Below are positions 35,228 through 64,000 of a stretch of DNA of 64,000 nucleotides, in pieces (within the stretch, counting starts at the first letter, position 1; each line of letters starts with the position of its first letter). The notes under the pieces are model-generated. The model saw nothing but the letters and a program-made list of their open reading frames with translations. It did not search any database and was not told the origin of the DNA. Origin of the DNA: Eledone cirrhosa (lineage: Eukaryota); contig OZ024741.1 in assembly GCA_964016885.1 (NCBI GenBank), forward strand, positions 3,348,001-3,412,000, given 5' to 3'. The translations under genes were made by a program, and so were the position numbers.

Positions 35228-35458
35228 ATTGATGTTGTTGTTGTCGTTGTTGTTGATGGTGTTGTTGTTCTCATTGTCGTGGTTGTTGCTGTCCTTGTTG
35301 TCGTTGTTGTTGTTGTTGTCGTTGTTGTTGTCGTCGTTGTTGTCGTCGTTGTTGCTGTTGTTGTTGTTGTTGTCGTTGTTGTTGTTGTTGTCGTTGTTGT
35401 TGTCGTTGTTGTTGTCGATGTGGTCGTGGTGGTGGTGGGTGTTGTTGTTGTTGTTGTT
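35228..35458. repeat. Imperfect (GTT)n/(GTC)n microsatellite at the satellite inversion point
   Basis: gttgttgttgtcgttgttg... run that grades directly into the inverted satellite (gttgttgttatgttatctctctatattgctg). Confidence 0.95.
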
Positions 35459-38290
35459 ATGTTATCTCTCTATATTGCTGTAGTTGTTATGTTGTCTCTC
35501 TATATTGCTGTAGTTGTTATGTCTCTATATTGCTGTAGTTGTTATGTCTTTCTATATTGCTGTAGTTGTTATGTCTCTCTATATTGCTGTAGTTGTTATG
35601 TCTCTATTTTGCTGTAGTTGTTATGTCTTTCTATATTGCTGTAGTTGTTATGTCTCTCTATATTGCTGTAGTTGTTATGTCTCTATTTTGCTGTAGTTGT
35701 TATGTCTTTCTATATTGCTGTAGTTGTTATGTCTCTCTTTATTGCTGTAGTTGTTATGTCTCTCTATATTGCTGTAGTTGTTATCTCTATATATTGCTGT
35801 AGTTGTTATGTCTCTCTATATTGCTGTAGTTGTTATGTCTCTCTATATTGCTGTAGTTGTTATGTCTCTATATTGCTGTAGTTGTTATGTTGTCTCTCTA
35901 TATTGCTGTAGTTGTTATGTCTCTCTATATTGTTGTAGTTGTTATGTTGTTTCTCTATATTACCGTAGCTGTTATGTTTCTATATTGCTGTAGTTGTTAT
36001 GTCTCTATATTGCCGTAGTTGTTATGTCTCTATATTGCTGTAGTTGTTATGTCTCTCTATATTGCTGTAGTTGTTATCTCTCTATATTGCTGTAGTTGTT
36101 ATGTCTCTCTATATTGCTGTAGTTGTTATGTCTTTCTATATTGCTGTAGTTGTTATGTCTCTCTATATTGCTGTAGTTGTTATGTTGTCTCTCTATATTG
36201 CTGTAGTTGTTATGTCTCTCTATATTGCTGTAGTTGTTATCTCTCTATATTGCTGTAGTTGTTACGTCTTTCTATATTGCTGTAGTTGTTATCTCTCTAT
36301 AGTGCTGTAGTTGTTATGTCTCTCTATATTGCTGTAGTTGTTATGTCTTTCTATATTGCTGTATTTGTTATGTCTCCCTATATTGCTGTCGTTGTTATGT
36401 CTCTATATTTCTGTAATTGTTATGTCTCTATATTGCTGTAGTTGTTATGTTGTCCCTCTATATTGCTGTAGTTGTCTCTCTCAATATTGCTGCAGTTGTT
36501 ATATCTCTCTATATTGCTGTAGTTGTTATGTCTCTATATTGCTGTAGTTGTTATGTTTCTCTATATTGCTGTAGTTGTTGTGTCTCTATATTGCTGTAGT
36601 TGTTATGTCTCTATATTGCTGTAGTTGTTATGTTGTCCCTCTATATTGCTGTAGTTGCTATGTCTCTATATTGATGTAGTTGTTATATCTCTCTATATTG
36701 CTGTAATTGTTATCTCTCTATATTGCTGTAATTGTTATCTCTCTATATTGCTGTAGTTGTTATGTCTCTCTATATTGCTGTAGTTGTTATGTCTCTATAT
36801 AATCCTGGAGTTGTTATGTTGTCTCTCTATATTGCTGTAGTTGTTATGTCTCTATATTGCTGTAGTTGTTATGTCTCTCTATATTGCTGTAAATGTTATG
36901 TCTCTATATTGCTGTGGTTGTTATGTCTCTCTATATTGCTGTAGTTGTTATGTCTCTCTATATTGCTGTATTTGTTATGTCTCTCTATATTGCTGTAGTT
37001 GTTATGTCTCTATATTGCTGTAGTTGTTATGTCTTTCTATATTGCTGTAATTGTTATGTCTCTCTATATTGCTGTAGTTGTTATGTCTCTATATTGCTGT
37101 AGTTGTTATGTCTCTCTATATTGCTGTAGCTGTATGTCTCGCTATATTGCTGTAGTTGTTATGTTGTCTCTCTCTATATTGCTGTAGTTGTTATGTCTCT
37201 ATTTTGCTGTAGTTGTTATGTCTCTCTATATTGCTGTAGTTGTTATGATACTCTATATTGCTGTAGTGGTTATGTCTCTATATTGCTGTAGTTGTTATTT
37301 TTCTATATTGCTGTAGTTGTTATGTTTCTATATTGCTGTAGTTGTTATGTCTCTCTATATTGCTGTAGTTGTTATCTCTCTATATTGGTGTAGTTGTTAT
37401 GTCTCTTTATATTGCTGTAGTTGTTATGTCTCTCTACATTGCTGTAGTTGTTATGTCTCTATATTGCTGTAGTCGTTATGTCTCTATATTTCTGTAGTTG
37501 TTATGTCTCTATATTGCTGTAGTTGTTATGTCTCTATATTGCTGTAGTTGTTATGTCTCTCAATATTGCTGTTGTTGTTATATTGTCTCTCTATATTGCT
37601 GTAGTTGTTATGTCTCTATATTGCTGTAGTTGTTATGTCTCTCTATATTGCTGTAGTTGTTATGTTGTCTCTTTATATTGGTGTAGTTGTTATGTCTCTA
37701 TGTTGCTATAGTTGTTGTCTCTCTATATTGCCGTTGTTGTTATGTTGTCTCTCTATATTGCTGTAGTTGTTATGTCTCTATATTGCTGTAGTTGTTATGT
37801 CTCTATATTTCTGTAGTTGTTATGTCACTCTATATTGCTGGCGTTGTTATGTTGTCTCTCTATATTGCTGTACTTGTTATGTCTCTAGATTGCTGTAGTT
37901 TTTATGTGTCTCTATATTGCTGTAGTCGTTATGTCTCTCTATATTGCTGTATTTGTTATGTCTCTATATTGCTGTAGTTGTTATGTCTATATATTGCTGT
38001 AGTTGTTATGTCTCACTATATTGCTGTAGATGTATGTCTCGCTATATTGATGTAGTTGTTAATTTGTTTCTCTATATTGCTGTAGTTGTTATGTCTCTCT
38101 ATATTGCTGTAGTTGTTATGTCTCTCTATATTGCTGTAGTTGTTATGTCTCTCTATATTGCTGTACTTGTTATGTCTCTATATTGCTGTAGTTGTTATGT
38201 CTCTCTATATTGCTGTAGTTGTTATGTCTCTCTATTTGCTGTAGTTGTTATGTCTCTCTATGTTGCTGTAGTCGTTATGTCTCTCTATAT
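35452..38290 (-). repeat. Satellite A, inverted arm (~2.8 kb)
   Basis: Monomers read GTCTCTCTATATTGCTGTAGTTGTTAT, the reverse complement of the main arm. The ORF track shows the same spurious peptides switching from the - to the + strand. Confidence 0.97.
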
Positions 38291-38415
38291 TTACTCGGGG
38301 CACCACCCCTAGGTTCCTTTATCTACCCGGGGCCACCACCCATAGTTTCCTTTATCTACCCGGGTCACCACCCCTAGGTTCTTTATCTACCCGGGCCACC
38401 ACACCTAGGTCCCTT
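38291..38415. repeat. ~31-bp GC-rich minisatellite, 4 copies, capping the satellite
   Basis: Unit ~TTTATCTACCCGGGGCCACCACCCCTAGGTTCC repeated four times with small indels. Confidence 0.88.
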
Positions 38416-38454: not shown

Positions 38455-38668
38455 GCTGCTATACAAGTATCGAGGGAGCGTTGAACATCTTTCGAAGTAT
38501 AGAGTTATGGCCTTCTACGTTCTGAGTTCAAATCCCGCCGAGCTTAACTTTGCCTTTCGTCCTTACAAGGTCGATAAAATAAAGTACCAGTAATGCACTG
38601 CGGTCAATTTAATCGACTTTTCCCTCCCCCAAAATTGTTGGCCTTGTGCCTAAATCAGAAAGCATTAT
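38455..38668 (+). mobile_element. tRNA-derived SINE, degenerate (first of a tandem pair)
   Basis: B-box-like GAGTTCAAATCC at 38524-38535, followed by CTTTGCCTTTCGTCCTT..GGTCGATAAAATAAAGTACCAGT. Related copies at 38672, 46141, 47085 and 51000. Confidence 0.75.
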
Positions 38669-38671
38669 TTG

Positions 38672-38836
38672 GATGCTATGCAAGTACCGGTAGAGAGTTG
38701 AACAACATGCTTTACAGCATAGAGTTGCGTTCCTTTACGTTCTGAGTTCAAATCCCGCCGAGGTTAGATAAAATAAAGTACCATTAATGCACAGGGGGTT
38801 CAATTTAATAATACCTAAGTCAGAAACCGTTATTAT
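38672..38836 (+). mobile_element. tRNA-derived SINE, internally deleted second copy
   Basis: TACGTTCTGAGTTCAAATCCCGCCGAG recurs 220 bp after the first copy, with GATAAAATAAAGTACCA and a CAGAAACCGTTATT tail. Confidence 0.7.
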
Positions 38837-38936
38837 ATTATCAATTTTCTCCTTTTCCAAACAAAATTGATGACTTTGTTCCAATAATAGAAACCCTTAT
38901 TTTGTCGGGCAATGAAATCTTCAATTAACCCTTTAG

Positions 38937-39371
38937 CATTTACATTACTCTATATATACTATTGTATAATCACGGTAAACACTTTACCTCACGTAATATC
39001 TCACATAACATTTACATTACTCTATATATACTATTGTATTGTCACAGTAAAGGCTTTACCTCACATAATATCTCACATAACATTTACATTACTCTATATA
39101 TACTATTATATTTTCACAGTAAAGGCTTTACCTCACATAATATCTCACATAACATTTACATTACTCTATATATACTATTATATTGTCACAGTAAAGGCTT
39201 TACCTCACATAATATCTCACATAACATTTACGTTACTCTATATATACTATTGTATTGTCACAGTAAAGGCTTTACCTCACATAATTTCTCACATAACATT
39301 TACATTACTCTATATATACTATTGTATTTTCACAGTAAAGGCTTTACCTCACATAATATCTCACATAACAT
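38937..39371. repeat. 72-bp minisatellite, left half (6 copies)
   Basis: Unit CATTTACATTACTCTATATATACTATTGTATTGTCACAGTAAAGGCTTTACCTCACATAATATCTCACATAA starts at 38937, 39009, 39081, 39153, 39225 and 39297. The first copy overlaps the left TIR. Confidence 0.96.
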
Positions 39372-39557
39372 CTCGTATACGAGAGACGTGTGTTGACGTG
39401 TGTGAAGAAGCTCGGCTACCGAGTCGGATTTACTTACTCAAAAGTGAGTTTTGATTAATTTTGTATACTGTAATATACGTTAACCCCTTGCCTTGGTCGT
39501 CAAACTTTGAGTTTATTTATTTTCCAGTTAAAAATTTATTACGGCAAACTAATAGAA

Positions 39558-41297
39558 ATGGACGGAATTTTCACATCTCATCCTAACGAGAAAGCCACGG
39601 CCCCTAAGAAAGGTGATACAGAGAAGCTAGAAGCACAAGGCTCTAAGTCTTCCCTCCTCACTTCTGCAAAAGAAACATGGAACATGGAATTAAAAGAAAA
39701 ATTTGTAAAAATGGGTGAAAACCCAGAAAGTCACATAAACGCAGACAAAAACAACAACGACAATAACAGCAATAGTCACAACACCAACCAAGGAAAAAAT
39801 AACGATAACACCAAACAAAGCGAACTAACTACTGGTGCCTCCTTTGCACAGGCGGTCCGGAAAACACAAACCTGCAAGCAACTGGACATTACAACTCTGA
39901 GAGAAAAGATGAAGGAAGCGAAACAGTATGTAACTTTCAAAGAAGGAGGAGACTTCACAATCACCTCCCCACAAGAAATCAAAAGAGACACGACGCTAAG
40001 AACGATATCTTTCAGAACAATTTCCAACATAACAAGGAAACCAGCTCAATTATCCCAAAAAGAGATTGAACTGGTCCTAAAAAATGTGTGGAGTGATATA
40101 TCGTTCATACAAAAAGGGCCACTCTATGGGAATATAACGGTCCTAATGAAGGATCAATTGACGGCCAGGAATTACTCTGTGGCGCCAATTGTTTCCAAGC
40201 TACATACATTTTTCCCCACATATTTAGGGAAAAGAACGCAGAAAATAAGGGTCTCCGGAATCCGGCCAAATGCATGCATTTCCTGGGTATTAACAGGATT
40301 TTTAGAAGACGAGGACGGAATCCTCTCAGTAGGAGAAGTCACCACAGATGTTTTCGGCGGTTTGAGCGTGGAGGTTCTGGTCCAAATGAGACCAGAACGA
40401 ATAGCTAGAATACCACAGAGGGTGTCCCTCGATGGAGAAACATTTATATACATTTCAGCCGAGGGTAGGAGGCCCATATGTTACTACTGTTCAAGCAGGG
40501 GTCATCTAAGGGCTGCTTGTCCTCAATAGACAAAAAAAAAGGCTCTTTTGCCTACACCCCACACACCACCATCGCCACCACCACCACCACCACCTCCACC
40601 ACCACCACAACAACAACAACAAAAACAACACGAAAAAATAACACAAGACACGGCCCCACCCAAAACAACTCCAAAAACACACACAAATACAACAAAACCC
40701 CAAAATACACCACTACCCGACAACACGGACGAGGACCCAGCTGAAACGGCACCTAGTGACGAAGAGGGGGAACCCTTCCAACCTGTAAAAAGGAAAAAAA
40801 GAAAACACCACTCGAACATAAACGAAACAAACACACAACCACCAACAAAAACAAAACAAACAGAACAAACAAAATCCGCCCCACCCCAAAACATAACACA
40901 TACAACAAAACGTAAGCACACACAAGAACAGCAAACAAACACAACACAAATAAAACAGTATACATACATTAACACAAATAACAAAGAACTAGTAAAAACA
41001 ATACACAAAGACCCTTCGGTGGAAACTGAAGGGCAATTCTTTGCAAGCGCGGCCAACAAATCGCATTTAAAAATGATAAGACTCCCAATGGACACCTATG
41101 CAAAACTAAGAGAGAACTTTCCTGAGGACGTGGGGAAAACATGTACTCGACCCTATAACCGCGTCCTCTTGAAACGTTTCCCCACCCACACCTCACCAAA
41201 CACCCCCACTCCACCACAGAACAACACCCCACCAAACAACTCCTCCAATACGCCCATGGATATTGTGCAACCTGCTCCTCAGGAGCCGAACAGGTAG
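39558..41297 (+). pseudogene. Tx1-like ORF1 (gag-like zinc-knuckle protein, ~579 codons) with one in-frame TAG at 40527-40529
   Basis: ATG at 39558. CX2CX4HX4C motif CYYCSSRGHLRAAC at 40479-40520. Track ORFs 39507..40529 and 40548..41297 are in the same frame, separated only by TAG. A Pro/Thr/Gln-rich linker follows. Confidence 0.85.
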
Positions 41298-41318
41298 GTC
41301 CTTCCTCTTTTAACCAAC

Positions 41319-44300
41319 ATGGCTGATATAAGAGTTGGGTGTCTGAATGTACGCGGCCTGGGACTGTCTTGGAAACAAGGCAAACTTTTAAACGATCTCA
41401 GGTCGCATAGAATGGATGTAATGGCTATTTGCGAGTCCAGGATCAGCAGCGAGCACCAACTGGCGCCCCTCTTCGACGACTTTGAGATCTTCGCATCTCT
41501 CTGTCAACCGGGGGGTGGGGGTGGAGTTGTCGTTCTGCTGCGAAAACACCTGGGCCTCGCCATACAGAAGGTGCACCTGGACCCGGAGGGTCGACTGGTG
41601 GTTTTAGACGTCGGCAGTAGTGAAAGTGGAGCCCTTAGACTAATAGCTGTGTACGCCCCTTTTTGGGCAGCGCGGCCGGAATACTTCCAACGTCTGGAAA
41701 CTTTTCTGGGAACGTCCCGCTCCTTGCTTTTAGTGGGGGACTGGAATGGTATCCTGGATGCACGTTGGGACTATGTAGGGGCATGTGCCAATAGAGGGGG
41801 GTGTAAAAGCCTCAAAAGGTTAATCGGCCGATTTGACCTAGCCGATAGATATCGACTAGATTTTCCGACTGTACCACTATGGACGTGGACCAATCGTAGC
41901 GGAACATATAGGTCGTACCTAGATAGGGTCCTAGTTAGAGAGAAGGATAGGAACACATTTAGCTGTCCAAAAATGTTCATGGTTGACTATTCGGATCACA
42001 AGTTAGTGACCTGCATAGCCAACCTTGATAGAACCCATAGACAGGGACCCGGTTACTGGAAGCTGAACTTGTCCTTACCGACAAGCAAAGCTTACAGTAA
42101 ACGGATTAGCACGTTAGTTAAGCAGAGTTTGACAGGGGCAATTGTCAACAACAGGTGGTGGAGCTCTCTTAAGAGAGCAATTAGAATAGAATCGATAGGT
42201 TTTAGTCAGGAATTAGCAAGGGATAGGAACAAGACGGAAAGGGAATTAGTAGATAGAGTAGCAGAGGCGATTAGGAGTGGCAATGTAGCCGGCGTGCTGG
42301 CATCAAGAATGGCCTTAGACCAGTTCTTTGAGGTGAAGCATGAAGGCTGCGTTGTCAGGAGTAAAATACGTGCTCTGGGTAATGAGGGAGCCAAAGCTGT
42401 GAGCTGGGCCCGAGTGACAGAGGCAAAAAGTGGGAACAAGTCCACGATTCGGTCTTTGAAGGAACAGGATGGGCGTGTGATCCTTGAACCTGGGAAGATG
42501 TGTACGGCCTTTCAGCGGCACTTTGCACGACTGTTCGAGAGGGGTGGCGCGCCGGGTGAGACTATGGATTTCAATCCATACCTCGACGGTCTGCCGCGCC
42601 TCTCGGACGCGGAGGCGAAGTCCTGCGAAAGGACGATTTCAGCTGCTGAGATAGGGGCGGCGCTGAGCCAATGCGGCAAACGCAAATCCCCGGGTCTCGA
42701 TGGTCTACCATACGAGCTATATGTAGCGATGCCGGACTTGTTCTCCGATATCCTCGAAGCGGTCTACTGCAACTGGCAGCAGAACGGGAGAATTCCCAGT
42801 TCTGTGACCAAGGGCGTAGTTACGCTGCTGGGGAAGGATGAGAACAAGGAGGATGACATAAGTAACTTCAGGCCCATAACTCTGCTAAATACAGAGTTAA
42901 AGATTTTGGCCAAGGTGTTAGCGAAGAGTTTGGCGCTTGTCGTTGGAAACCTGGTGGGAGAAGCGCAGACATGCGCAATCCCGTCCAGGTCCATTCACGA
43001 CAATCTCCACCTTATGCGATACATCATAGAGAGGGTAGGGAATGAACCCGGCTTTGGTGGGGCCCTGATCAACTTGGATCAATCTAAAGCTTTCGGTAGG
43101 GTTGACCATCGTTACCTGGATGCAGTGCTCGCGGCGGCAGGCTTCGGACCCGTTTTCAGGGGTTGGATTGCTGCGATGCACAGCAGCAACGTCTGATCAA
43201 GGGTCTAGGTGAACGGCCACCTCTAGGAGCCGTTCCAAATCATGAATCCATCCGACAGGGATGCCCTCTCTCCTCCCTACTGTATGTGCTGGCTCTTGAG
43301 CCACTACTGCGGAAGTTGGAGCGGTTGCAGGGCATCCTTTTAGAACCGGGATTGCAGAAAGCGGCGTCGGCCTACGCCGATGACGTGACAGTAATGGTGT
43401 CGAAAACCTCGCAAATCGGTGAGATCGGCACCTTACTGGAGGAATATGAAAGGTTTACAGGAGCCAAGCTGAACCGGGACAAGTCCGTCGGTTTGCAACT
43501 CGGAACATGGAGAGGCAAACCGATGCCCTCCAACGACGTCGTCGGACGCTGGACGGAGGGCCCGGTGAAGCTGCTTGGGGTCTGGTTCGGACCAGACCTC
43601 CATGTGGAGAAAAACTGGAACGAGGTAACGGCCAGGGTGTTTGCACTCACCCAGAAGTGGGCCCAGTGCAAACTATCCCTGAAAGGTCGAGCGGAGGTGG
43701 CGAATACTTATATAGCATCGGTCATCTACTACCGCTTGACCGTCGTGCCTTGCCCAGTGAAAAGACTTGCCAAAATGGAGTGCGCGCTGTTCCACTTTCT
43801 TTGGAACAAGCGGACCCCTTTGGTGAGGAGATCCATCTGCTGTCAACACCCTTCGAAAGGGGGGCTGGGGATGCCGTGGCTACAGATGCGTAAACACGCA
43901 TTAAGGCTACGGCACCTCCAGGTATTCCTCACCGGTCAACCGGTGTGGGCCCCGTTTGTGAGGCGAGCCTTTCCCAGACTCGTCTCGCTCACCGAGCTGT
44001 AATCCTGGGTCAAGCAAAGACCGAGAAAAGTGGGCGACTGGCACATTGAATGTGCCCAGGCGCTCACGGCCCTCTGGAAAGCGGACCCGGCAATCAGTGG
44101 AGACTCCACCTCGACATTCTATAGAGGGTTGGTACGCAGCAGGTGCGACGATGCTCTCGGAGAAGCTCTAGGCATGGAGGAAGATGAACTGGCCAGTCTG
44201 TTCGGTAGGACGTTTGGCCCTGGACCGATGGACAACTTCCAAAAGTCCCTGGCTTGGAAGTGCTACCGAGGGACTCTACCCGTTCGAGACAAGCTCCACA

Positions 44301-44755
44301 GGCATGGGAGCCTGGGTAGAGATCCTTTGAATAAGATCTGTCCGAGATGCGTGCATGATGACGAAACCGTTGCGCACGCATTCGTACACTGCCCAGGCAT
44401 TGCTGACCTGTGGGGCTATGTGGAACAACTACTGTCGAGGGTGGGACCAATCCGGTTGACCACCGAGTCCATTGTCACGATCAAACCGCCTCCCCCTTTC
44501 AAAAACGAAGGAGAGGCGGTTTTTCTCTCTGTGATAGCCATGGCTAAAGAAGTTGTATGGTGGACGAGGCTGAAAGGGCTGAGGTCAGACACCTTTCTCT
44601 CCGGCCAACAACTGGTCCCCTTTTTCAAATACCATTTTAAAAGAAGGATCAGAATGGAGAGAGAGGTGCTCTACCCCAGCAAGTTTTATGAAAGGTGGGT
44701 GAAAGTAGGGAGAATGGCCAGAGTGAATGGGTCTTCTCTCTATATCAGCCTGTAG
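41319..44755 (+). pseudogene. Tx1-like ORF2 (AP endonuclease, reverse transcriptase, zf-RVT), disrupted
   Basis: APE motifs LNVRGL, VGDWN, LDRVL, SDH. Linker GPGYWKLN. RT motifs KSPGLDGL, FRPITLLN, LDQSKAF, RQGCPLS and YADD (43373-43384). C-terminal CPRC-X8-H-X4-C. Stops at 43194, 43206, 43224 and 44000, and a 1-bp frameshift at ~43245. Confidence 0.95.
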
Positions 44756-44980
44756 GTGAAAGAAGAGGAAAAAGAGGAGACGAGGGAAGCACCTACTCTT
44801 TGTGCTCCTGAGGAGAAGGGTTGCACATTTTTTCCGGGGTGTGTGCGACCCATGTTAATGCCCCCTCCCTATTGAGGACTTCGTTTGTTGTTGTTATTTC
44901 ATTGTTATATTTTTGTACTCGTTAATTATATGTAAACTTCCCCCCTTGTATCTGTCCCTACCTTTTGTGCCCTAGTGGCA

Positions 44981-44986
44981 AATAAA
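44981..44986 (+). promoter_or_regulatory. Polyadenylation signal at the LINE 3' end
   Basis: AATAAA lies 6 bp before the 72-bp array resumes. Confidence 0.6.
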
Positions 44987-44992
44987 GAAACC

Positions 44993-45405
44993 ACTCTATA
45001 TATATTATTGTATTTTCACAGTAAAGGCTTTACCTCACATAATATCTCACATAACATTTACATTACTCTATATATACTATTGTATTTTCACAGTAAAGGC
45101 TTTACCTCACATAATATCTCACATAACATTTACATTACTCTATATATACTATTGTATTTTCACAGTAAAGGCTTTACCTCACATAATATCTCACATAACA
45201 TTTACATTACTCTATATATACTATTGTATTGTCACAGTAAAGGCTTTACCTCACATAACATTTACATACTCTATATATACTATTGTATTTTCACGGTAAA
45301 GGCTTTACCTCACATAATATCTCACATAACATTTACATTACTCTATATATAATTTTGTATTTTCACGGTAAAGGCTTTACTTCACATAATATCTCACATA
45401 ATATC
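44993..45405. repeat. 72-bp minisatellite, right half (6 copies, one 60-bp variant)
   Basis: Units at 44993 (partial), 45055, 45127, 45199 (60 bp), 45259 and 45330; same consensus as the left half. Confidence 0.96.
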
Positions 45406-46140
45406 GAATCTATGAGATTTTAATATTATTTATTTTGAGAACAACATCTTAACATCAGTATGAGCAGCCAGTTACGACCAGTTTAAACAGAAAGAGATGA
45501 GAGAATTCTGGCCGGATATGGCCGGTTTAAATGCTAAAGGGTTAAAGGTCCTCTGAGTGACACTTCCTGCTCTAATTAGTACCAGTCAAGTACTGGGGTC
45601 ATTCTTCCTCTATATCTCTTTCTCGTTTCCATTTTCACTCACTCTTTATCATTCTCGAAGAAATCTGCTGTAGTCAGATGAGGAATAAAGATGAGCTCCG
45701 TCAGGTTTTTAAATTCCCTAGGGAAATTAGGGATCCATACATACATATTTCACTACTCCCAGCCCCATTATCATTGTTGCGGCCTTCAAAATCTACATAT
45801 ATCTAGTTATTTCATAAGTTCAAGGTAACCTCTATAGTTTCACAAGTTTTCATCCTTTCTTCAACCACGAGTTGTATTGTTAACGGTCTTTAAAACAACA
45901 TTTATGTCATACACTTTCAATGTTTCTATTTCCTATAAATATGATATCTGCAGCATTTTATTTAACCTTTTTAAATCCGATTTTTGTTCTACACTACAAA
46001 ATCTTCAACCTAATAATGATAAAGTTAGAGTTGTCAGAGTTGTTGGAGCTTTGCGTTATGTCTTTTGGTTCTCTGGGTTCTCAGTTAAAACTTTCATCCT
46101 TTCATCCTTTCACTGTTGATAAAAGAAAGTAGCTGTCTAC

Positions 46141-54533: not shown

Positions 54534-54560
54534 TTCTTCTACTGAGTAACAATGTCATAG

Positions 54561-57500
54561 ACACCTGCTAGACTATATATGTAGGTTGTTGGTGATTTAA
54601 CGCTATATACACACCTGCTAGACTATATATGTAGGTTGTTGGTGACTTAACACTATATACACACCTGCTAGACTATATATGTAGGTTGTTGGTGGCTTAA
54701 CACTATATACACACCTGCTAGACTATATATGTAGGTTGTTGGTGACTTAACACTATATACACACCTGCTAGACTATATATGTAGGTTGTTGGTGACTTAA
54801 CACTATATACACACCTGCTAGACTATATATGTAGGTTGTTGGTGACTTAACACTATATACACACCTGCTAGACTATATATGTAGGTTGTTGGTGACTTAA
54901 CACTATATACACACCTGCTAGACTATATATGTAGGTTGTTGGTGACTTAACACTATATACACACCTGCTAGACTATATATGTAGGTTGTTGGTGATTTAA
55001 CGCTATATACACACCTGCGAGACTATATATGTAGGTTGTTGGTGACTTAACACTATATACACACCTGCGAGACTATATATGTAGGTTGTTGGTGACTTAA
55101 CACTATATACACACCTGCTAGACTATATATGTAGGTTGTTGGTGATTTAACGCTATATACACACCTGCGAGACTATATATGTAGGTTGTTGGTGACTTAA
55201 CACTATATACACACCTGCTAGACTATATATGTAGGTTGTTGGTGACTTAACACTATATACACACCTGCTAGACTATATATGTAGGTTGTTGGTGACTTAA
55301 CACTATATACACACCTGCTAGACTATATATGTAGGTTGTTGGTGACTTAACACTATATACACACCTGCTAGACTATATATGTAGGTTGTTGGTGACTTAA
55401 CACTATATACACACCTGCTAGACTATATATGTAGGTTGTTGGTGACTTAACACTATATACACACCTGCTAGACTATATATGTAGGTTGTTGGTGATTTAA
55501 CACTATATACACACCTGCGAGACTATATATGTAGGTTGTTGGTGACTTAACACTATATACACACCTGCTAGACTATATATGTAGGTTGTTGGTGACTTAA
55601 CACTATATACACACCTGCTAGACTATATATGTAGGTTGTTGGTGACTTAACACTATATACACACCTGCTAGACTATATATGTAGGTTGTTGGTGACTTAA
55701 CACTATATACACACCTGCTAGACTATATATGTAGGTTGTTGGTGATTTAACGCTATATACACACCTGCTAGACTATATATGTAGGTTGTTGGTGACTTAA
55801 CACTATATACACACCTGCTAGACTATATATGTAGGTTGTTGGTGACTTAACACTATATACACACCTGCTAGACTATATATGTAGGTTGTTGGTGATTTAA
55901 CGCTATATACACACCTGCGAGACTATATATGTAGGTTGTTGGTGACTTAACACTATATACACACCTGCGAGACTATATATGTAGGTTGTTGGTGACTTAA
56001 CACTATATACACACCTGCTAGACTATATATGTAGGTTGTTGGTGACTTAACACTATATACACACCTGCGAGACTATATATGTAGGTTGTTGGAGACTTAA
56101 CACTATATACACACCTGCTAGACTATATATGTAGGTTGTTGGTGACTTAACACTATATACACACCTGCTAGACTATATATGTAGGTTGTTGGTGACTTAA
56201 CACTATATACACACCTGCTAGACTATATATGTAGGTTGTTGGTGACTTAACACTATATACACACCTGCTAGACTATATATGTAGGTTGTTGGTGACTTAA
56301 CACTATATACACACCTGCTAGACTATATATGTAGGTTGTTGGTGATTTAACGCTATATACACACCTGCGAGACTATATATGTAGGTTGTTGGTGACTTAA
56401 CACTATATACACACCTGCTAGACTATATATGTAGGTTGTTGGTGACTTAACACTATATACACACCTGCTAGACTATATATGTAGGTTGTTGGTGACTTAA
56501 CACTATATACACACCTGCTAGAATATATATGTAGGTTGTTGGTGACTTAACACTATATACACACCTGCTAGACTATATATGTAGGTTGTTGGTGACTTAA
56601 CACTATATACACACCTGCTAGACTATATATGTAGGTTGTTGGTGACTTAACACTATATACACACCTGCTAGACTATATATGGAGGTTGTTGGTGATTTAA
56701 CGCTATATACACACCTGCGAGACTATATATGTAGGTTGTTGGTGACTTAACACTATATACACACCTGCGAGACTATATATGTAGGTTGTTGGTGACTTAA
56801 CACTATATACACACCTGCTAGACTATATATGTAGGCTGTTGGTGATTTAACGCTATATACACACTTTCTAGACTATATATGTAGGCTGTTGGTGACTTAA
56901 CACTATATACACACCTGCTAGACTTTATATGTAGGTTGTTGGTGACTTAACACTATATACACACCTGCTAGACTATATATGTAGGTTGTTGGTGACTTAA
57001 CACTATATACACACCTGCTAGACTATATATGTAGGTTGTTGGTGACTTAACACTATATACACACCTGCTAGACTATATATGTAGGTTGTTGGTGACTTAA
57101 CACTATATACACACCTGCTAGACTATATATGTAGGTTGTTGGTGACTTAACACTATATACACACCTGCTAGACTATATATGTAGGTTGTTGGTGATTTAA
57201 CGCTATATACACACCTGCGAGACTATATATGTAGGTTGTTGGTGACTTAACACTATATACACACCTGCGAGACTATATATGTAGGTTGTTGGTGACTTAA
57301 CACTATATACACACCTGCTAGACTATATATGTAGGCTGTTGGTGATTTAACGCTATATACACACTTTCTAGACTATATATGTAGGCTGTTGGTGACTTAA
57401 CACTATATACACACCTGCTAGACTATATATGTAGGTTGTTGGTGACTTAAAACTATATACACACCAGCTAGGCTATATATGTAGGTTGTTGGTGATTTAA

Positions 57501-60500
57501 CACTATATACACACACCTGCTAGACTATATATGTAGGTTATTGGTGACTTAACACTATATACACACCTGCTAGACTATATATGTAGGTTGTTAATGTCTT
57601 AACACTATATACACACCTGCTAGACTATATATGTAGATTGTTGATCACTTAACACTATATACACAGCTGCTAGACTATATATTTATGTTGTTGATGAATT
57701 ACCGCTATATACACACCTGCTAGACTATATATGTAGGTTGTTGATGACTTAACACTATATACACACCTGCTAGACTATATATGTAGGTTGTTGGTGACTT
57801 AACACTATATACACACCTGCTAGACTATATATGTAGGTTGTTGGTGACTTAACGCTATATACACACATGCTAGACTTTATATGTAGGTTGTTGGTGACTT
57901 AACACTATATACACACATGCTAGACTATATATGTAGGTTGTTGATGTCTTAACACTATATACACACCTGCTAGACTATATATGTAGGTTGTTGGTGACTT
58001 AATACTATATACACACCTGCTAGACTATATATGTAGGTTGTTGGTGACTTAACACTATATACACACCTGCTAGACTATATATTTACGATGTTGGTGACTT
58101 AACACTATATACACACCTGCTAGACTATATATCTAGATTGTTGGTGACTTAACACAATATACACACCTGCTAGACTATATATGTAGGTTGTTGGTGACTT
58201 AACACTATATACACACCTGCTAGACTATAGATGTAGGTTGTTGGTGACTTAACACTATATACACACCTGCTAGACTATATATGTAGGTTGTTGGTGACTT
58301 AACACTATATACACACCTGCTAGATTATATATGTAGGTTGTTGGTGATTAACACTATATACACCCCTGCGAGACTATATATGTAGGTTGTTGGTGACTTA
58401 ACACTATATACACACCTGCTAGACTATATATGTAGGTTGTTGGTGACTTAACACTATATACACACCTGCTAGATTATATATGTAGGTTGTTGGTGATTAA
58501 CGCTATATACACCCCTGCTAGACTATATATGTAGGTTGTTGGTGAATTAACGCTATATATACACCTGCTAGACTATATATGTAGGTTGTTGGTGACTGAA
58601 CACTATATACACCCCTGCTAGACTATATATGTAGATTGTTGATGACTTAACACTATATACACACCTGCTAGACTATATATGTAGGTTGTTGATGACTTAA
58701 CACTATATACACACCTGCTAGACTATATATTTATGTTGTTGATGAATTACCGCTATATACACACCTGCTAGACTATATATGTAGGTTGTTGATGACTTAA
58801 CACTATATACACACCTGCTAGAATATATATTTATGTTGTTGATGAATTAACGCTAAATACACACCTGCTAGACTATATATTTATGTTGTTGGTGACTTAA
58901 CACTATATACACACCTGCTAGACTATATATGTAGGTTGTTGATGACTTAACGCTATATACACACGTGCTAGACTATATATGTACGATGTTGATGACTTAA
59001 CGCTATATACACACCTGCTAGACTATATATTTATGTTGTTGATCACTTAACGCTATATACACACCTGCGAGACTATATATGTAGGTTGTTGATGACTTAA
59101 CGCTATTTACACACCTGCTAGACTATATATGTAGGTTGTTGGTGACTTAACACTATATACACACGTGCTAGACTATATATGTAGGTTGTTGGTGACTTAA
59201 CACTATATACACACGTGCTAGACTATATTTGTAGGTTGTTGGTGACTTAACACTATATACACACCTGCTAGACTATATATTTATGTTGTTGGTGACTTAA
59301 CACTATATACACACCTGCTAGACTATATATTTATGTTGTTGGTGACTTAACACTATATACACACCTGCTAGACTATATATGTAGGTTATTGGTGACTTAA
59401 CACAATATACACACCTGCTAGACTATATATGTAGGGTGTTGGTGACTTAACGCTATATACACACCTACTAGACTATATATGTAGGTTGTTGATGACTTAA
59501 CGCATTATACACACCTGCTAGACTATATATGTAGGTTGTTGGTGACTTAACACTATATACACACCTGCTAGACTATATGTGTACGATGTTGGTGATTTAA
59601 CGCTATATACACACCTGCTAGACTCTATATGTAGGTTGTTGATGACTTAACACTATATACACACCTGCTAGACTATATATGTAGGTTGTTGATGACAACG
59701 CTATATACACACCTGGTAGTCTATATATGTAGGTTATTGGTGATTTAACGCTATATACACACCTGCTAGACTATATATGTAGGCTGTTGGTGATTTAACG
59801 CTATATACACACTTTCTAGACTATATATGTAGGCTGTTGGTGACTTAACACTATATACACCCCTGCGAGACTATATATGTAGGTTGTTGGTGACTTAACA
59901 CTATATACACACCTGTTAGACTATATATATAGGTTGTTGTTGATTAAACACAATATACACACCTGCTAGACTATATATGTAGGTTGTTGGTGACTTAACA
60001 CTATATACACACCTGCTAGACTATATATGTAGGTTGTTGGTGACTTAACACTATATACACCCCTGCGAGACTATATATGTAGGTTGTTGGTGACTTAACA
60101 CTATATACACACCTGCTAGACTATATATGTAGGTTGTTGGTGACTTAACGCTATATACACCCCTGCTGGACTATATATGTAGATTGTTGGTGACTTAACG
60201 CTATATACACCCCTGCTAGACTATATATTTACGATGTTGGTGACTTAACACTATATACACACCTGCTAGACTATATATGTAGGTTGTTGATGTCTTAACA
60301 CTATATACACACCTGCTAGACTATATATTTACGATGTTGGTGACTTAACACTATATACACACCTGCTAGACTATATATGTAGGTTGTTGGTGACTTAACA
60401 CTATATACACAGCTGCTAGACTATATATGTAGGTTGTTGGTGACTTAACACTATATACACACCTGCTAGACTATATATGTAGGTTGTTGGTGACTTAACA

Positions 60501-63500
60501 CTATATACACACCTGCTAGACTATATATGTAGGTTGTTGGTGACTTAACACTATATACACACCTGCTAGACTATATATTTACGATGTTGGTGACTTAACA
60601 CTATATACACACCTGCTAGACTATATATCTAGATTGTTGGTGACTTAACACAATATACACACCTGCTAGACTATATATGTAGGTTGTTGATGTCTTAACA
60701 CTATATACACACCTGCTAGACTATATATGTAGGTTGATGGTGACTTAACACTATATACACACCTGCTAGACTATATATGTAGGTTGTTGATGTCTTAACA
60801 CTATATACACACCTGCTAGACTATATATGTAGGTTGTTGATGACTTAACACTATATACACACCTGCTAGACTATATATGTAGGTTGTTGGTGACTTAACA
60901 CTATATACACACCTGCTAGACTATATATTTATGTTGTTGATGAATTACCGCTATATACACACCTGCTAGACTATATATGTAGGTTGTTGATGACTTAACA
61001 CTATATACACACCTGCTAGACTATATATTTATGTTGTTGATGAATTAACGCTATATACACACCTGCTAGACTATATATTTATGTTGTTGGTGACTTAACA
61101 CTATATACACACCTGCTAGACTATATATTTATGTTGTTGGTGACTTAACACTATATACACACCTGCTAGACTATATATGTAGGTTGTTGATGACTTAACG
61201 CTATATACACACGTGCTAGACTATATATGTACGATGTTGATGACTTAACGCTATATACACACCTGCTAGACTATATATTTATGTTGTTGGTGACTTAACA
61301 CTATATACACACCTGCGAGACTATATATGTAGGTTGTTGATGACTTAACGCTATTTACACACCTGCTAGACTATATATGTAGGTTGTTGGTGACTTAACA
61401 CTATATACACACGTGCTAGACTATATATGTAGGTTGTTGGTGACTTAACACTATATACACACGTGCTAGACTATATATGTAGGTTGTTGGTGTCTTAACA
61501 CTATATACACACCTGCTAGACTATATATTTATGTTGTTGGTGACTTAACACTATATACACACCTGCTAGACTATATATTTATGTTGTTGGTGACTTAACA
61601 CTATATACACACCTGCTAGACTATATATGTAGGTTATTGGTGACTTAACACAATATACACACCTGCTAGACTATATATGTAGGGTGTTGGTGACTTAACG
61701 CTATATACACACCTACTAGACTATATATGTAGGTTGTTGATGACTTAACGCATTATACACACCTGCTAGACTATATATGTAGGTTGTTGGTGACTTAACA
61801 CTATATACACACCTGCTAGACTATATGTGTACGATGTTGGTGATTTAACGCTATATACACACCTGCTAGACTCTATATGTAGGTTGTTGATGACTTAACA
61901 CTATATACACACCTGCTAGACTATATATGTAGGTTGTTGATGACAACGCTATATACACACCTGGTAGTCTATATATGTAGGTTGTTGGTGATTTAACGCT
62001 ATATACACACCTGCTAGACTATATATGTAGGCTGTTGGTGATTTAACGCTATATACACACTTTCTAGACTATATATGTAGGCTGTTGGTGTCTTAACACT
62101 ATATACACACCTGCTAGACTATATATATAGGTTGTTGGTGATTAAACACAATATACACACCTGCTAGACTATATATGTAGGTTGTTGGTGACTTAAAACT
62201 ATATACACACCAGCTAGGCTATATATGTAGGTTGTTGGTGATTTAACACTATATACACACCTGCTAGACTATATATGTAGGTTGTTGGTGTCTTAACACT
62301 ATATACACACCTGCTAGACTATATATGTAGGTTGTTGGTGACTTAACACTATATACACACCTGCTAGACTATATATGTAGGTTGTTGGTGACTTAACACT
62401 ATATACACACCTGCTAGACTATATATGTAGGTTGTTGATGTCTTAACACTATATACACACCTGCTAGACTATATATGTAGGTTGTTGATGTCTTAACACT
62501 ATATACACACATGCTAGACTTTATATGTAGGTTGTTGGTGACTTAACACTATATACACACATGCTAGACTTTATATGTAGGTTGTTGGTGACTTAACACT
62601 ATATACACACATGCTAGACTATATATGTAGGTTGTTGATGTCTTAACACTATATACACACCTGCTAGACTATATATGTAGATTGTTGATCACTTAACACT
62701 ATATACACACCTGCTGTACTATATATGTAGGTTGTTGGTGACTTAACGCTATATACACACCTGCTAGACTATATATGTAGGTTGTTGGTGACTTAACACT
62801 ATATACACCCCTGCTAGACTATATATGTAGGTTGTTGGTGACTTAACACTATATACACACCTGTTAGACTATATATTTACGATGTTGGTGACTTAACACT
62901 ATATACACACCTGCTAGACTATATATGTAGGTTGTTGATGTCTTAACACTATATACACACCTGCTAGACTATATATTTACGATGTTGGTGACTTAACACT
63001 ATATACACACCTGCTAGACTATATATGTAGATTGTTGATCACTTAACACTATATACACACCTGCTAGACTATATATGTAGGTTGTTGGTGACTTAACACT
63101 ATATACACACCTGCTAGACTATATATGTAGGTTGTTGGTGACTTAACACTATATACACACCTGCTAGACTATATATGTAGGTTGTTGGTGACTTAACACT
63201 ATATACACACCTGCTAGACTATATATGTAGGTTGTTGGTGACTTAACACTATATACACACCTGCTAGACTATATATTTACGATGTTGGTGACTTAACACT
63301 ATATACACACCTGCTAGACTATATATCTAGATTGTTGGTGACTTAACACAATATACACACCTGCTAGACTATATATGTAGGTTGTTAATGTCTTAACACT
63401 ATATACACACCTGCTAGACTATATATGTAGGTTGTTGGTGACTTAACACTATATACACACCTGCTAGACTATATATGTAGGTTGTTGGTGACTTAACACT

Positions 63501-64000
63501 ATATACACACCTGCTAGACTATATATGTAGGTTGTTGATGTCTTAACACTATATACACACCTGCTAGACTATATATGTAGGTTGTTGATGACTTAACACT
63601 ATATACACACCTGCTAGACTATATATGTAGGTTGTTGTTGACTTAACTCTATATACACACCTGCTAGACTATATATTTATGTTGTTGATGAATTACCGCT
63701 ATATACACACCTGCTAGACTATATATGGAGGTTGTTGATGACTTAACACTATATACACACCTGCTAGACTATATATGTAGGTTGTTGATGACTTAACACT
63801 ATATACACACCTGCTAGACTATATATGTAGGTTGTTGATGACTTAACACTATATACACACCTGCTAGACTATATATGTAGGTTGTTGATGACTTAACACT
63901 ATATACACACCTGCTAGACTATATATGTAGGTTGTTGATGACTTAACACTATATACACACCTGCTAGACTATATATTTATGTTGTTGGTGACTTAACACT
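54561..64000. repeat. Satellite B, 50-bp monomer, ~189 copies, runs off the window end
   Basis: ACACCTGCTAGACTATATATGTAGGTTGTTGGTGACTTAACACTATATAC in tandem; near-homogeneous to ~57450 and more variable afterwards. Confidence 0.98.

Follow-up and report, generated by a model that had tools for sequence, protein, structure and literature searches.

A young Tx1-like LINE at a fixed site in the tandem arrays of a non-autonomous piggyBac element in Eledone cirrhosa

Introduction

Tx1L of Xenopus laevis inserts into the internal tandem repeats of Tx1D and makes a target duplication of approximately 23 bp. It is a Tx1-type APE LINE, site-specific in Tx1D, which is itself a non-autonomous piggyBac (PMC4494074, PMC1950540). 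Other Tx1 families, the crocodilian Tx1-Mar and Tx1-9_AMi as well as Kibi and Koshi, have DNA transposons of the Mariner or Harbinger type or else microsatellites as their targets, so that targets have switched between transposon and microsatellite classes within Tx1; no tandem array is described in the targets of these four families in the available text (PMC4494074). Preference for a target sequence is widespread among Tx1 elements, and their targeting of DNA transposons is already known, from Xenopus and crocodilians.

In melanogaster-type R1, full-length copies make a precise small deletion and the RNA carries upstream target sequence that anneals, truncated copies show duplications, and tandem insertions occur (PMC2718515). 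Tandem repeats in non-autonomous DNA transposons have been described in Xenopus Xmix/Xstir and miDNA4 (PMC9659126) and as Helentron arrays (PMC7492417), and in one model of MITE-borne satellites the monomer is born in the MITE and is then amplified (PMC9659126). The comparison literature further includes PMC3747384 and PMC8967140. In the literature searched, with subscription papers, Repbase and supplements outside the search, neither an account of this cephalopod system nor LINE-seeded MITE arrays were found.

Here, a Tx1-like LINE from the octopus Eledone cirrhosa is described which, like that of Xenopus Tx1C, occupies one fixed position among the internal repeats of a TTAA element. Unlike Tx1L with its duplication of approximately 23 bp, full-length Eledone copies delete 7 bp. 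The Eledone LINE also belongs to a deep lineage separate from Xenopus Tx1, and its nearest sister targets (TATC)n.

Results and Discussion

Anatomy of the composite

The window is the whole stretch of E. cirrhosa DNA that was analysed, 64,000 nucleotides long. The initial annotation had described 14-bp TIRs with TTAA on both sides, enclosing a 72-bp array that is split 6+6 by a LINE of about 5.6 kb, and the coordinates confirm this structure (Table 1). Together with the TTAAs, the 14-bp TIRs form 18 nt that are 100 % complementary. The last six bases of the left TIR double as the start of the first array unit, the last unit of the left array ends 7 bases early, and the first base of the right array, position 44993, is the fixed insertion point. 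ORF2 of this copy is interrupted by two stops, one at 43194-43196 and one at 44000-44002, and by a frameshift of 1 bp near 43245; with both ORFs broken, the window copy of the LINE is dead, a point absent from the initial annotation.

Table 1. Features of the composite, in window positions.
Feature	Position	Strand	Remarks
TTAA target-site duplication, left	38925..38928	.	Read in window sequence
Left TIR, non-autonomous piggyBac (MITE)	38929..38942	+	Matches one end of 2.57-kb autonomous piggyBac
Left array part, 72-bp units, 6.0 copies	38937..39371	+	
Array sequence of 23 nt, putative 5′ end of LINE RNA	39349..39371	+	Conservation across 85 copies
Tx1-like LINE body, 5,621 bp, full length, inactivated copy	39372..44992	+	
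ORF1, one putative CCHC knuckle; ~580 aa in intact copies	39558..41297	+	Broken here, stop 40527-40529
ORF2: APE endonuclease, RT, zf-RVT; 1,145 aa in intact copies	41319..44755	+	Broken here
AATAAA, six bases ahead of 3′ junction	44981..44986	+	No poly(A) tail after
Right array part, 5.9 copies (6 units, one of 59 bp)	44993..45401	+	
MITE unique body, 126 bp	45402..45527	+	
Right TIR	45528..45541	-	Matched to autonomous piggyBac end
TTAA target-site duplication, right	45542..45545	.	Read in window sequence

Elsewhere in the window, two SINE-like copies, which we take to be of the octopus OK-type, lie just left of the MITE (38484-38800). A 27-bp satellite of approximately 1,300 copies fills 1-35203 and 35465-38291, its orientation flipping across a (TTG)n tract at 35229-35458, and a 50-bp satellite (189 copies, 94 % matches) occupies 54557-64000 and runs past the window end.

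Target specificity across the genome

The 30 best matches to the last 493 bases of the LINE all read through into the beginning of the array unit, 29 of them going on as MITE and one (L004) departing after 12 bases. In the 3.0-Gb genome, the exact 3′ 21-mer of the LINE occurs 359 times, with the target directly after it in 274 cases, and reversed-pattern controls for the 21-mer plus target returned 0 genome-wide. The exact 5′ 21-mer occurs 311 times, preceded by one array 11-mer in 300, and no LINE 5′ ends joined directly behind sequence equivalent to the left TIR were found genome-wide. A sample of 60 places was then taken from the first 81 exact 3′ 21-mer places listed in order of position, excluding the window. 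Family copies, 92-98 % identical, account for 34 of the 60, and all 34 are on target with one 3′ junction. The 26 off-target places are not members of the window LINE family: 22 match it at approximately 68-85 % and four gave no chained match. Twenty-three of the 26 sit in (TATC)n-like microsatellite.

The LINE is a young family of approximately 300 copies at one fixed unit-boundary site. Chance nesting of a LINE in one local array, for which there is nothing beyond the single-locus view, can practically be dismissed, given that exact junctions recur across the genome, 274 of them 3′ and 300 of them 5′. The proposal of the initial annotation that 3′ flanks of LINE copies would share a target is upheld both in the sampled family copies and in the exact ends, and a target-specific Tx1-like LINE in the tandem array of a non-autonomous TTAA/piggyBac element is borne out genome-wide.

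The copies are also unevenly placed. On C1-C3, 34 of 34 on-target copies lie within the outer 8 % of the chromosome ends, as do 6 of 39 off-target matches and 17 of 25 array left ends; two on-target copies on C4 do not. MITE density on C1 is 0.7 per Mb in the ends versus 3.5 per Mb inside. This confinement to chromosome ends on C1-C3 exceeds what sequence specificity alone accounts for.

Sister LINE families in (TATC)n (L098, L106-L112, L125-L130, L132-L139, L149) are found throughout chromosome interiors. They are approximately 80 % identical, approximately 85-87 % in RT amino acids, and have at least two different 5′ ends. It is likely that the preference for MITE arrays descends from a (TATC)n-targeting ancestor. 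Since the nearest sister targets (TATC)n, the targeting of a DNA transposon is likely to have arisen independently of Xenopus. The Eledone family is an invertebrate example, separate and still young, of a Tx1-like element that lives in a DNA transposon. With microsatellite-targeting sisters in the same genome (RT 87 % identical), the target switch should be mappable to endonuclease residues.

Coding capacity and classification of the LINE

The 95 parsed loci, which include 60 further loci picked from the on-target list, have a full-length LINE in 87 cases and a LINE without its 5′ part in eight. An ORF2 of >1,100 aa is present in 34 of the 95, and both ORFs in 21. In the intact copy L097, ORF2 has the Pfam domains PF03372, PF00078 and PF13966 above cut-off, in keeping with the Tx1 layout of an APE endonuclease at the N-terminus, RT and a zinc-binding domain at the C-terminus; its ORF1 (580 aa) has a zf-CCHC match of 16.9 bits, under the 20.8 cut-off.

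In phmmer searches, ORF2 scored 299 bits against Xenopus Tx1 (YTX2_XENLA, P0310; 30 % identity over 832 aa) and 183 bits against human L1 ORF2. By score, ORF2 is nearer to Xenopus Tx1 than to L1, and the LINE is classed here as Tx1-like. The invertebrate parallel to Xenopus Tx1L/Tx1D suggested in the initial annotation is a real one. In a 25-row tree, unrooted and containing neither L1 nor any other outgroup, a long branch with 100/100 support lies between the query group and vertebrate Tx1, which places the Eledone LINE on a deep lineage separate from the vertebrate Tx1 group. Atlas and cluster look-ups returned no clade name.

Compared with a sister copy, dN/dS is 0.14 in RT and 0.24 in the endonuclease; RT is 87 % identical and the endonuclease, at 71 %, is the least conserved part of ORF2. 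These values indicate purifying selection on ORF2, strongest on RT. A relative in Argonauta hians has 67 % identity across part of ORF2. A relative in Patella caerulea (P0080 cluster) is represented by many genes with near-consecutive locus tags, which suggests a tandem array in the limpet, perhaps a site-specific one.

The host MITE and its piggyBac

The typical MITE copy is approximately 200-220 bp long, contains a single unit and is flanked by TTAA at either end. Its exact left-end 24-mer occurs 10,681 times in the genome and the left end followed by the array junction 624 times, about 6 % of MITEs, the two patterns differing slightly in strictness. In comparison with Xenopus Tx1C, the Eledone arrays are present in ~6 % of hosts, in which they arose in place. 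The array junction 27-mer has 33,583 exact occurrences. Further MITE copies, for which the initial annotation suggested a search, do carry arrays and LINEs at many loci, but the usual MITE has one unit and those with arrays are a minority.

An autonomous 2.57-kb piggyBac with PF13843 and open 561-aa transposase frames is present in the same genome. In its closest copies, 21 of 22 bases agree with one MITE end and 22-23 of 23 with the second; the host is therefore a non-autonomous piggyBac. The autonomous family is young and its open 561-aa frames are found at L272-L277 and L294; at L294, a copy has landed on a TTAA within a MITE's right end. Another piggyBac family (L281, L284, L286, L288) has different ends.

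Movement of the composite

The initial annotation had suggested that the 6.6-kb unit could be mobilized by a piggyBac transposase in trans, with the LINE hitch-hiking on the MITE. The 52 LINE-bearing hosts with a readable right end, among the 95 loci, give 1,326 pairs with a median identity of 83 % and a maximum of 96 %. Only one pair reaches 95 %, and its unit numbers differ (2/10 versus 12/1). Divergence from the commonest letters at 45 loci is 11.0 % in hosts and 0.5 % in LINEs, the host being the older in 45 of 45, and host divergence does not track that of the LINE (rho 0.10, p 0.5). Near-identical LINEs lie in old, unlike hosts, and the LINE therefore entered old MITEs one by one.

Carriage of the composite as one unit is thus very improbable, despite the intact TIRs and TTAAs in the window, the presence of both MITE ends within 10 kb at 25 of the 95 loci, and the near-matching ends of a piggyBac with open frames: there is no near-identical pair among the 52 hosts, the lone 95 % pair has different unit numbers, and the divergences do not go together. 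Rare mobilization by intact transposases with near-matching ends may occur. Amplification by transposase of an array-bearing MITE subfamily was also considered and rejected, the hosts being 83-84 % identical.

Several LINEs can share a host. One MITE at C1:4.22-4.26 Mb contains six head-to-tail LINEs (L092-L097) and another at C10:40.72-40.75 Mb contains five (L235-L239), each with 1-20 units between LINEs. Three of the five C10 LINEs differ at 1-2 of 3,600 bases and the six on C1 at 4-15 bases, the median over all pairs being 40. Some tandem LINE copies are local duplicates.

Junctions and the route of integration

In the best matches and family copies alike, the 3′ junction lacks poly(A), and AATAAA precedes it by six bases. 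On the 5′ side, positions 43-64 of the unit before the LINE have a single substitution across the 85 copies aligned of 87 full-length copies, while positions 10-42 vary freely, with a sharp conservation step at 42/43. In the unit that follows the LINE, positions 43-64 vary as well, with up to 10 substitutions per site. The conserved positions therefore indicate that the 23 nt listed in Table 1 travel with the LINE. A predicted hairpin starts at 39349, pairing with 39378-39405; this fold is weak (z about -2.0, equalled by 9 of 200 shuffles). An Rfam scan of the LINE 5′ end for ribozymes or known RNAs gave one match, far below threshold.

A target-site duplication of 50-65 bp in full-length copies was considered, sharing between the flanking units having exceeded permutation. 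Against the appropriate control, however, the units flanking the LINE share 38 of 108 variants (35 %; 70 loci, with tandem clusters and three disrupted loci excluded), and ordinary neighbours share as much (36-47 %). As the flanking units share no more than neighbours do, there is as a rule no long duplication and the junction is a 7-bp deletion at the unit boundary. By comparison, six 5′-truncated copies have a precise 3′ end and duplications of 2, 6, 9, 10, 16 and ~41 bp from the same start base. One 43-nt 3′ fragment (L189) is the only copy in a clear single-unit MITE among the 95 loci. At L182 there is one unit on each side, identical over approximately 50 bp. L185 has the look of an internally deleted copy, and other repeats interrupt L223. 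Eleven internal deletions in 10 copies keep both LINE ends; at these, short overlaps were seen and no consistent splice ends. Among contigs from three runs, one from X2 contains the LINE 3′ end and 12 target bases without differences, which is too short as a bridge, and contigs from a second organism, X5, included none spanning a LINE junction and are uninformative.

It is probable (roughly 0.8) that the LINE reaches the array site by target-primed reverse transcription, copy by copy and not as a composite. Judging from the junctions, the endonuclease would nick at, or just past, the unit start. The RNA would extend a few bases into the target, as the position of AATAAA and the absence of poly(A) suggest, and its 5′ end, as read from genomic copies rather than from the RNA itself, would carry at least 23 nt of the upstream unit. 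The finished cDNA would then anneal to the preceding unit, giving the precise join, whereas truncated copies would join via short duplications and could use a single-unit MITE. An upstream match exists only in arrays, and full-length copies would therefore need arrays; an R1-like junction of this kind is likely to account for that need. As in melanogaster-type R1, there is a small precise deletion in full-length copies (9 bp in R1, 7 bp in the Eledone LINE) and there are duplications in truncated ones. Unlike R1, which is of a different clade and targets the 28S rDNA host gene array, the Eledone LINE targets a transposon-borne array.

Several observations sit less easily with this model. A full-length fraction of 92 % is unusual for a LINE and, like the internal deletions that keep both ends, fits copying at the DNA level too. 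Three C10 copies are near-identical, so some copies are local duplicates. The L182 flanks can be read as a long duplication, the nick positions and RNA ends come from junctions only with a weak hairpin beside them, and copies on C1-C3 keep to the chromosome ends even though MITE density is higher in the interior. Spread at the DNA level would involve an endonuclease cut in an empty array and repair that copies the LINE out of an occupied one, in a homing-like conversion, plus unequal exchange. The 87 full-length copies out of 95, the deletions with both ends retained and the near-identical tandem copies would all be expected from it; in addition, copies sharing upstream-unit variants have slightly more LINE variants in common (2.25 versus 1.35, p 0.0005, from pairs that are not independent). 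It does not readily explain 5′-truncated copies that have short duplications and a precise 3′ end, a conservation step that is sharp at 42/43 with no fading tract, or purifying selection that is strongest on RT, and is considered improbable as the main route. That an APE-type LINE integrates precisely and nearly always at full length is of interest for the question of how 5′ junctions form, and for site-specific gene insertion tools.

Origin of the arrays

Of 70 array loci, 68 were parsed: 45 end in MITE body, four run into a LINE, and 19 are interrupted or exceed the stretch. The array hosts are old and unrelated (33 hosts, median identity 84 %, maximum 93 %). LINE-free two-unit arrays numbered 16 after three mis-parsed loci were dropped. 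In these, 33 of 50 host variants are common to both units (permutation mean 14.5), as are 12 of 24 rare host variants (permutation mean 1.6, maximum 8). The host's own sequence has therefore been duplicated in place. Read by eye, the 3′ part of the first unit is of a type that the host lacks in eight of the 16, and a donor therefore acted in trans; these comprise five short hosts in which the unit is long, two double-T hosts in which it is single-T and one short host in which it is double-T. Seven of the remaining arrays could be simple local copies and one is odd. Unlike in the Xmix/Xstir model, Eledone arrays are host/donor chimeras in old, unrelated hosts. A duplicated host around a donor piece fits staggered nicks with templated insertion, which the LINE machinery could carry out on transcripts that contain array units. 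Template switching at the DNA level, out of an array already present, fits as well, and the donor may be RNA or DNA.

Of 598 junctions in the arrays that follow LINEs, 568 are of one type and 22 are of other, microhomology-like types. This count was parsed without selection on the junction, while the tally of 67 of 68 among array loci was fixed by the search pattern. On a reading of the sequence, the single-unit MITE offers no exact microhomology for the dominant type.

Tentatively, the LINE may seed its own landing sites, array-carrying transcripts being reverse-transcribed into single-unit MITEs and so making arrays. There is about an even chance that arrays arise without the LINE, through template switches in replication or repair that carry an existing junction over to a single-unit MITE, chiefly in distal regions of high recombination, the LINE then simply making use of them. 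Satellites borne by MITEs in which no LINE is involved are known (PMC9659126). In Eledone, only four of the 68 array loci run directly into a LINE and most have no adjoining LINE; seven of the 16 two-unit arrays are explicable as simple local copies, and the 22 microhomology-like junctions speak for such an origin too. Moreover, a full-length LINE needs a prior array junction, so arrays came first at least once. A LINE-free origin is harder to reconcile with duplicated host sequence (12 of 24 rare variants) around a non-host piece, which resembles staggered nicks and templated insertion, and with a dominant junction type for which the single-unit MITE offers no exact microhomology.

If the LINE does seed arrays, this would offer a testable route to satellites with shared breakpoints in separate MITE copies that number hundreds to thousands. 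A retrotransposon would then drive a dispersed satellite (>33,000 exact unit junctions) in a dead DNA transposon, in a feedback loop in which the seeded arrays are the only places for full-length copies to integrate.

The unit is also entered by other sequences. A related foreign element, presumably Helitron/Helentron-like, is inserted into the unit at L141, L147 and L180, at or near the same place in two of these. Other insertions lie near unit position 13 at L152, L156 and L251.
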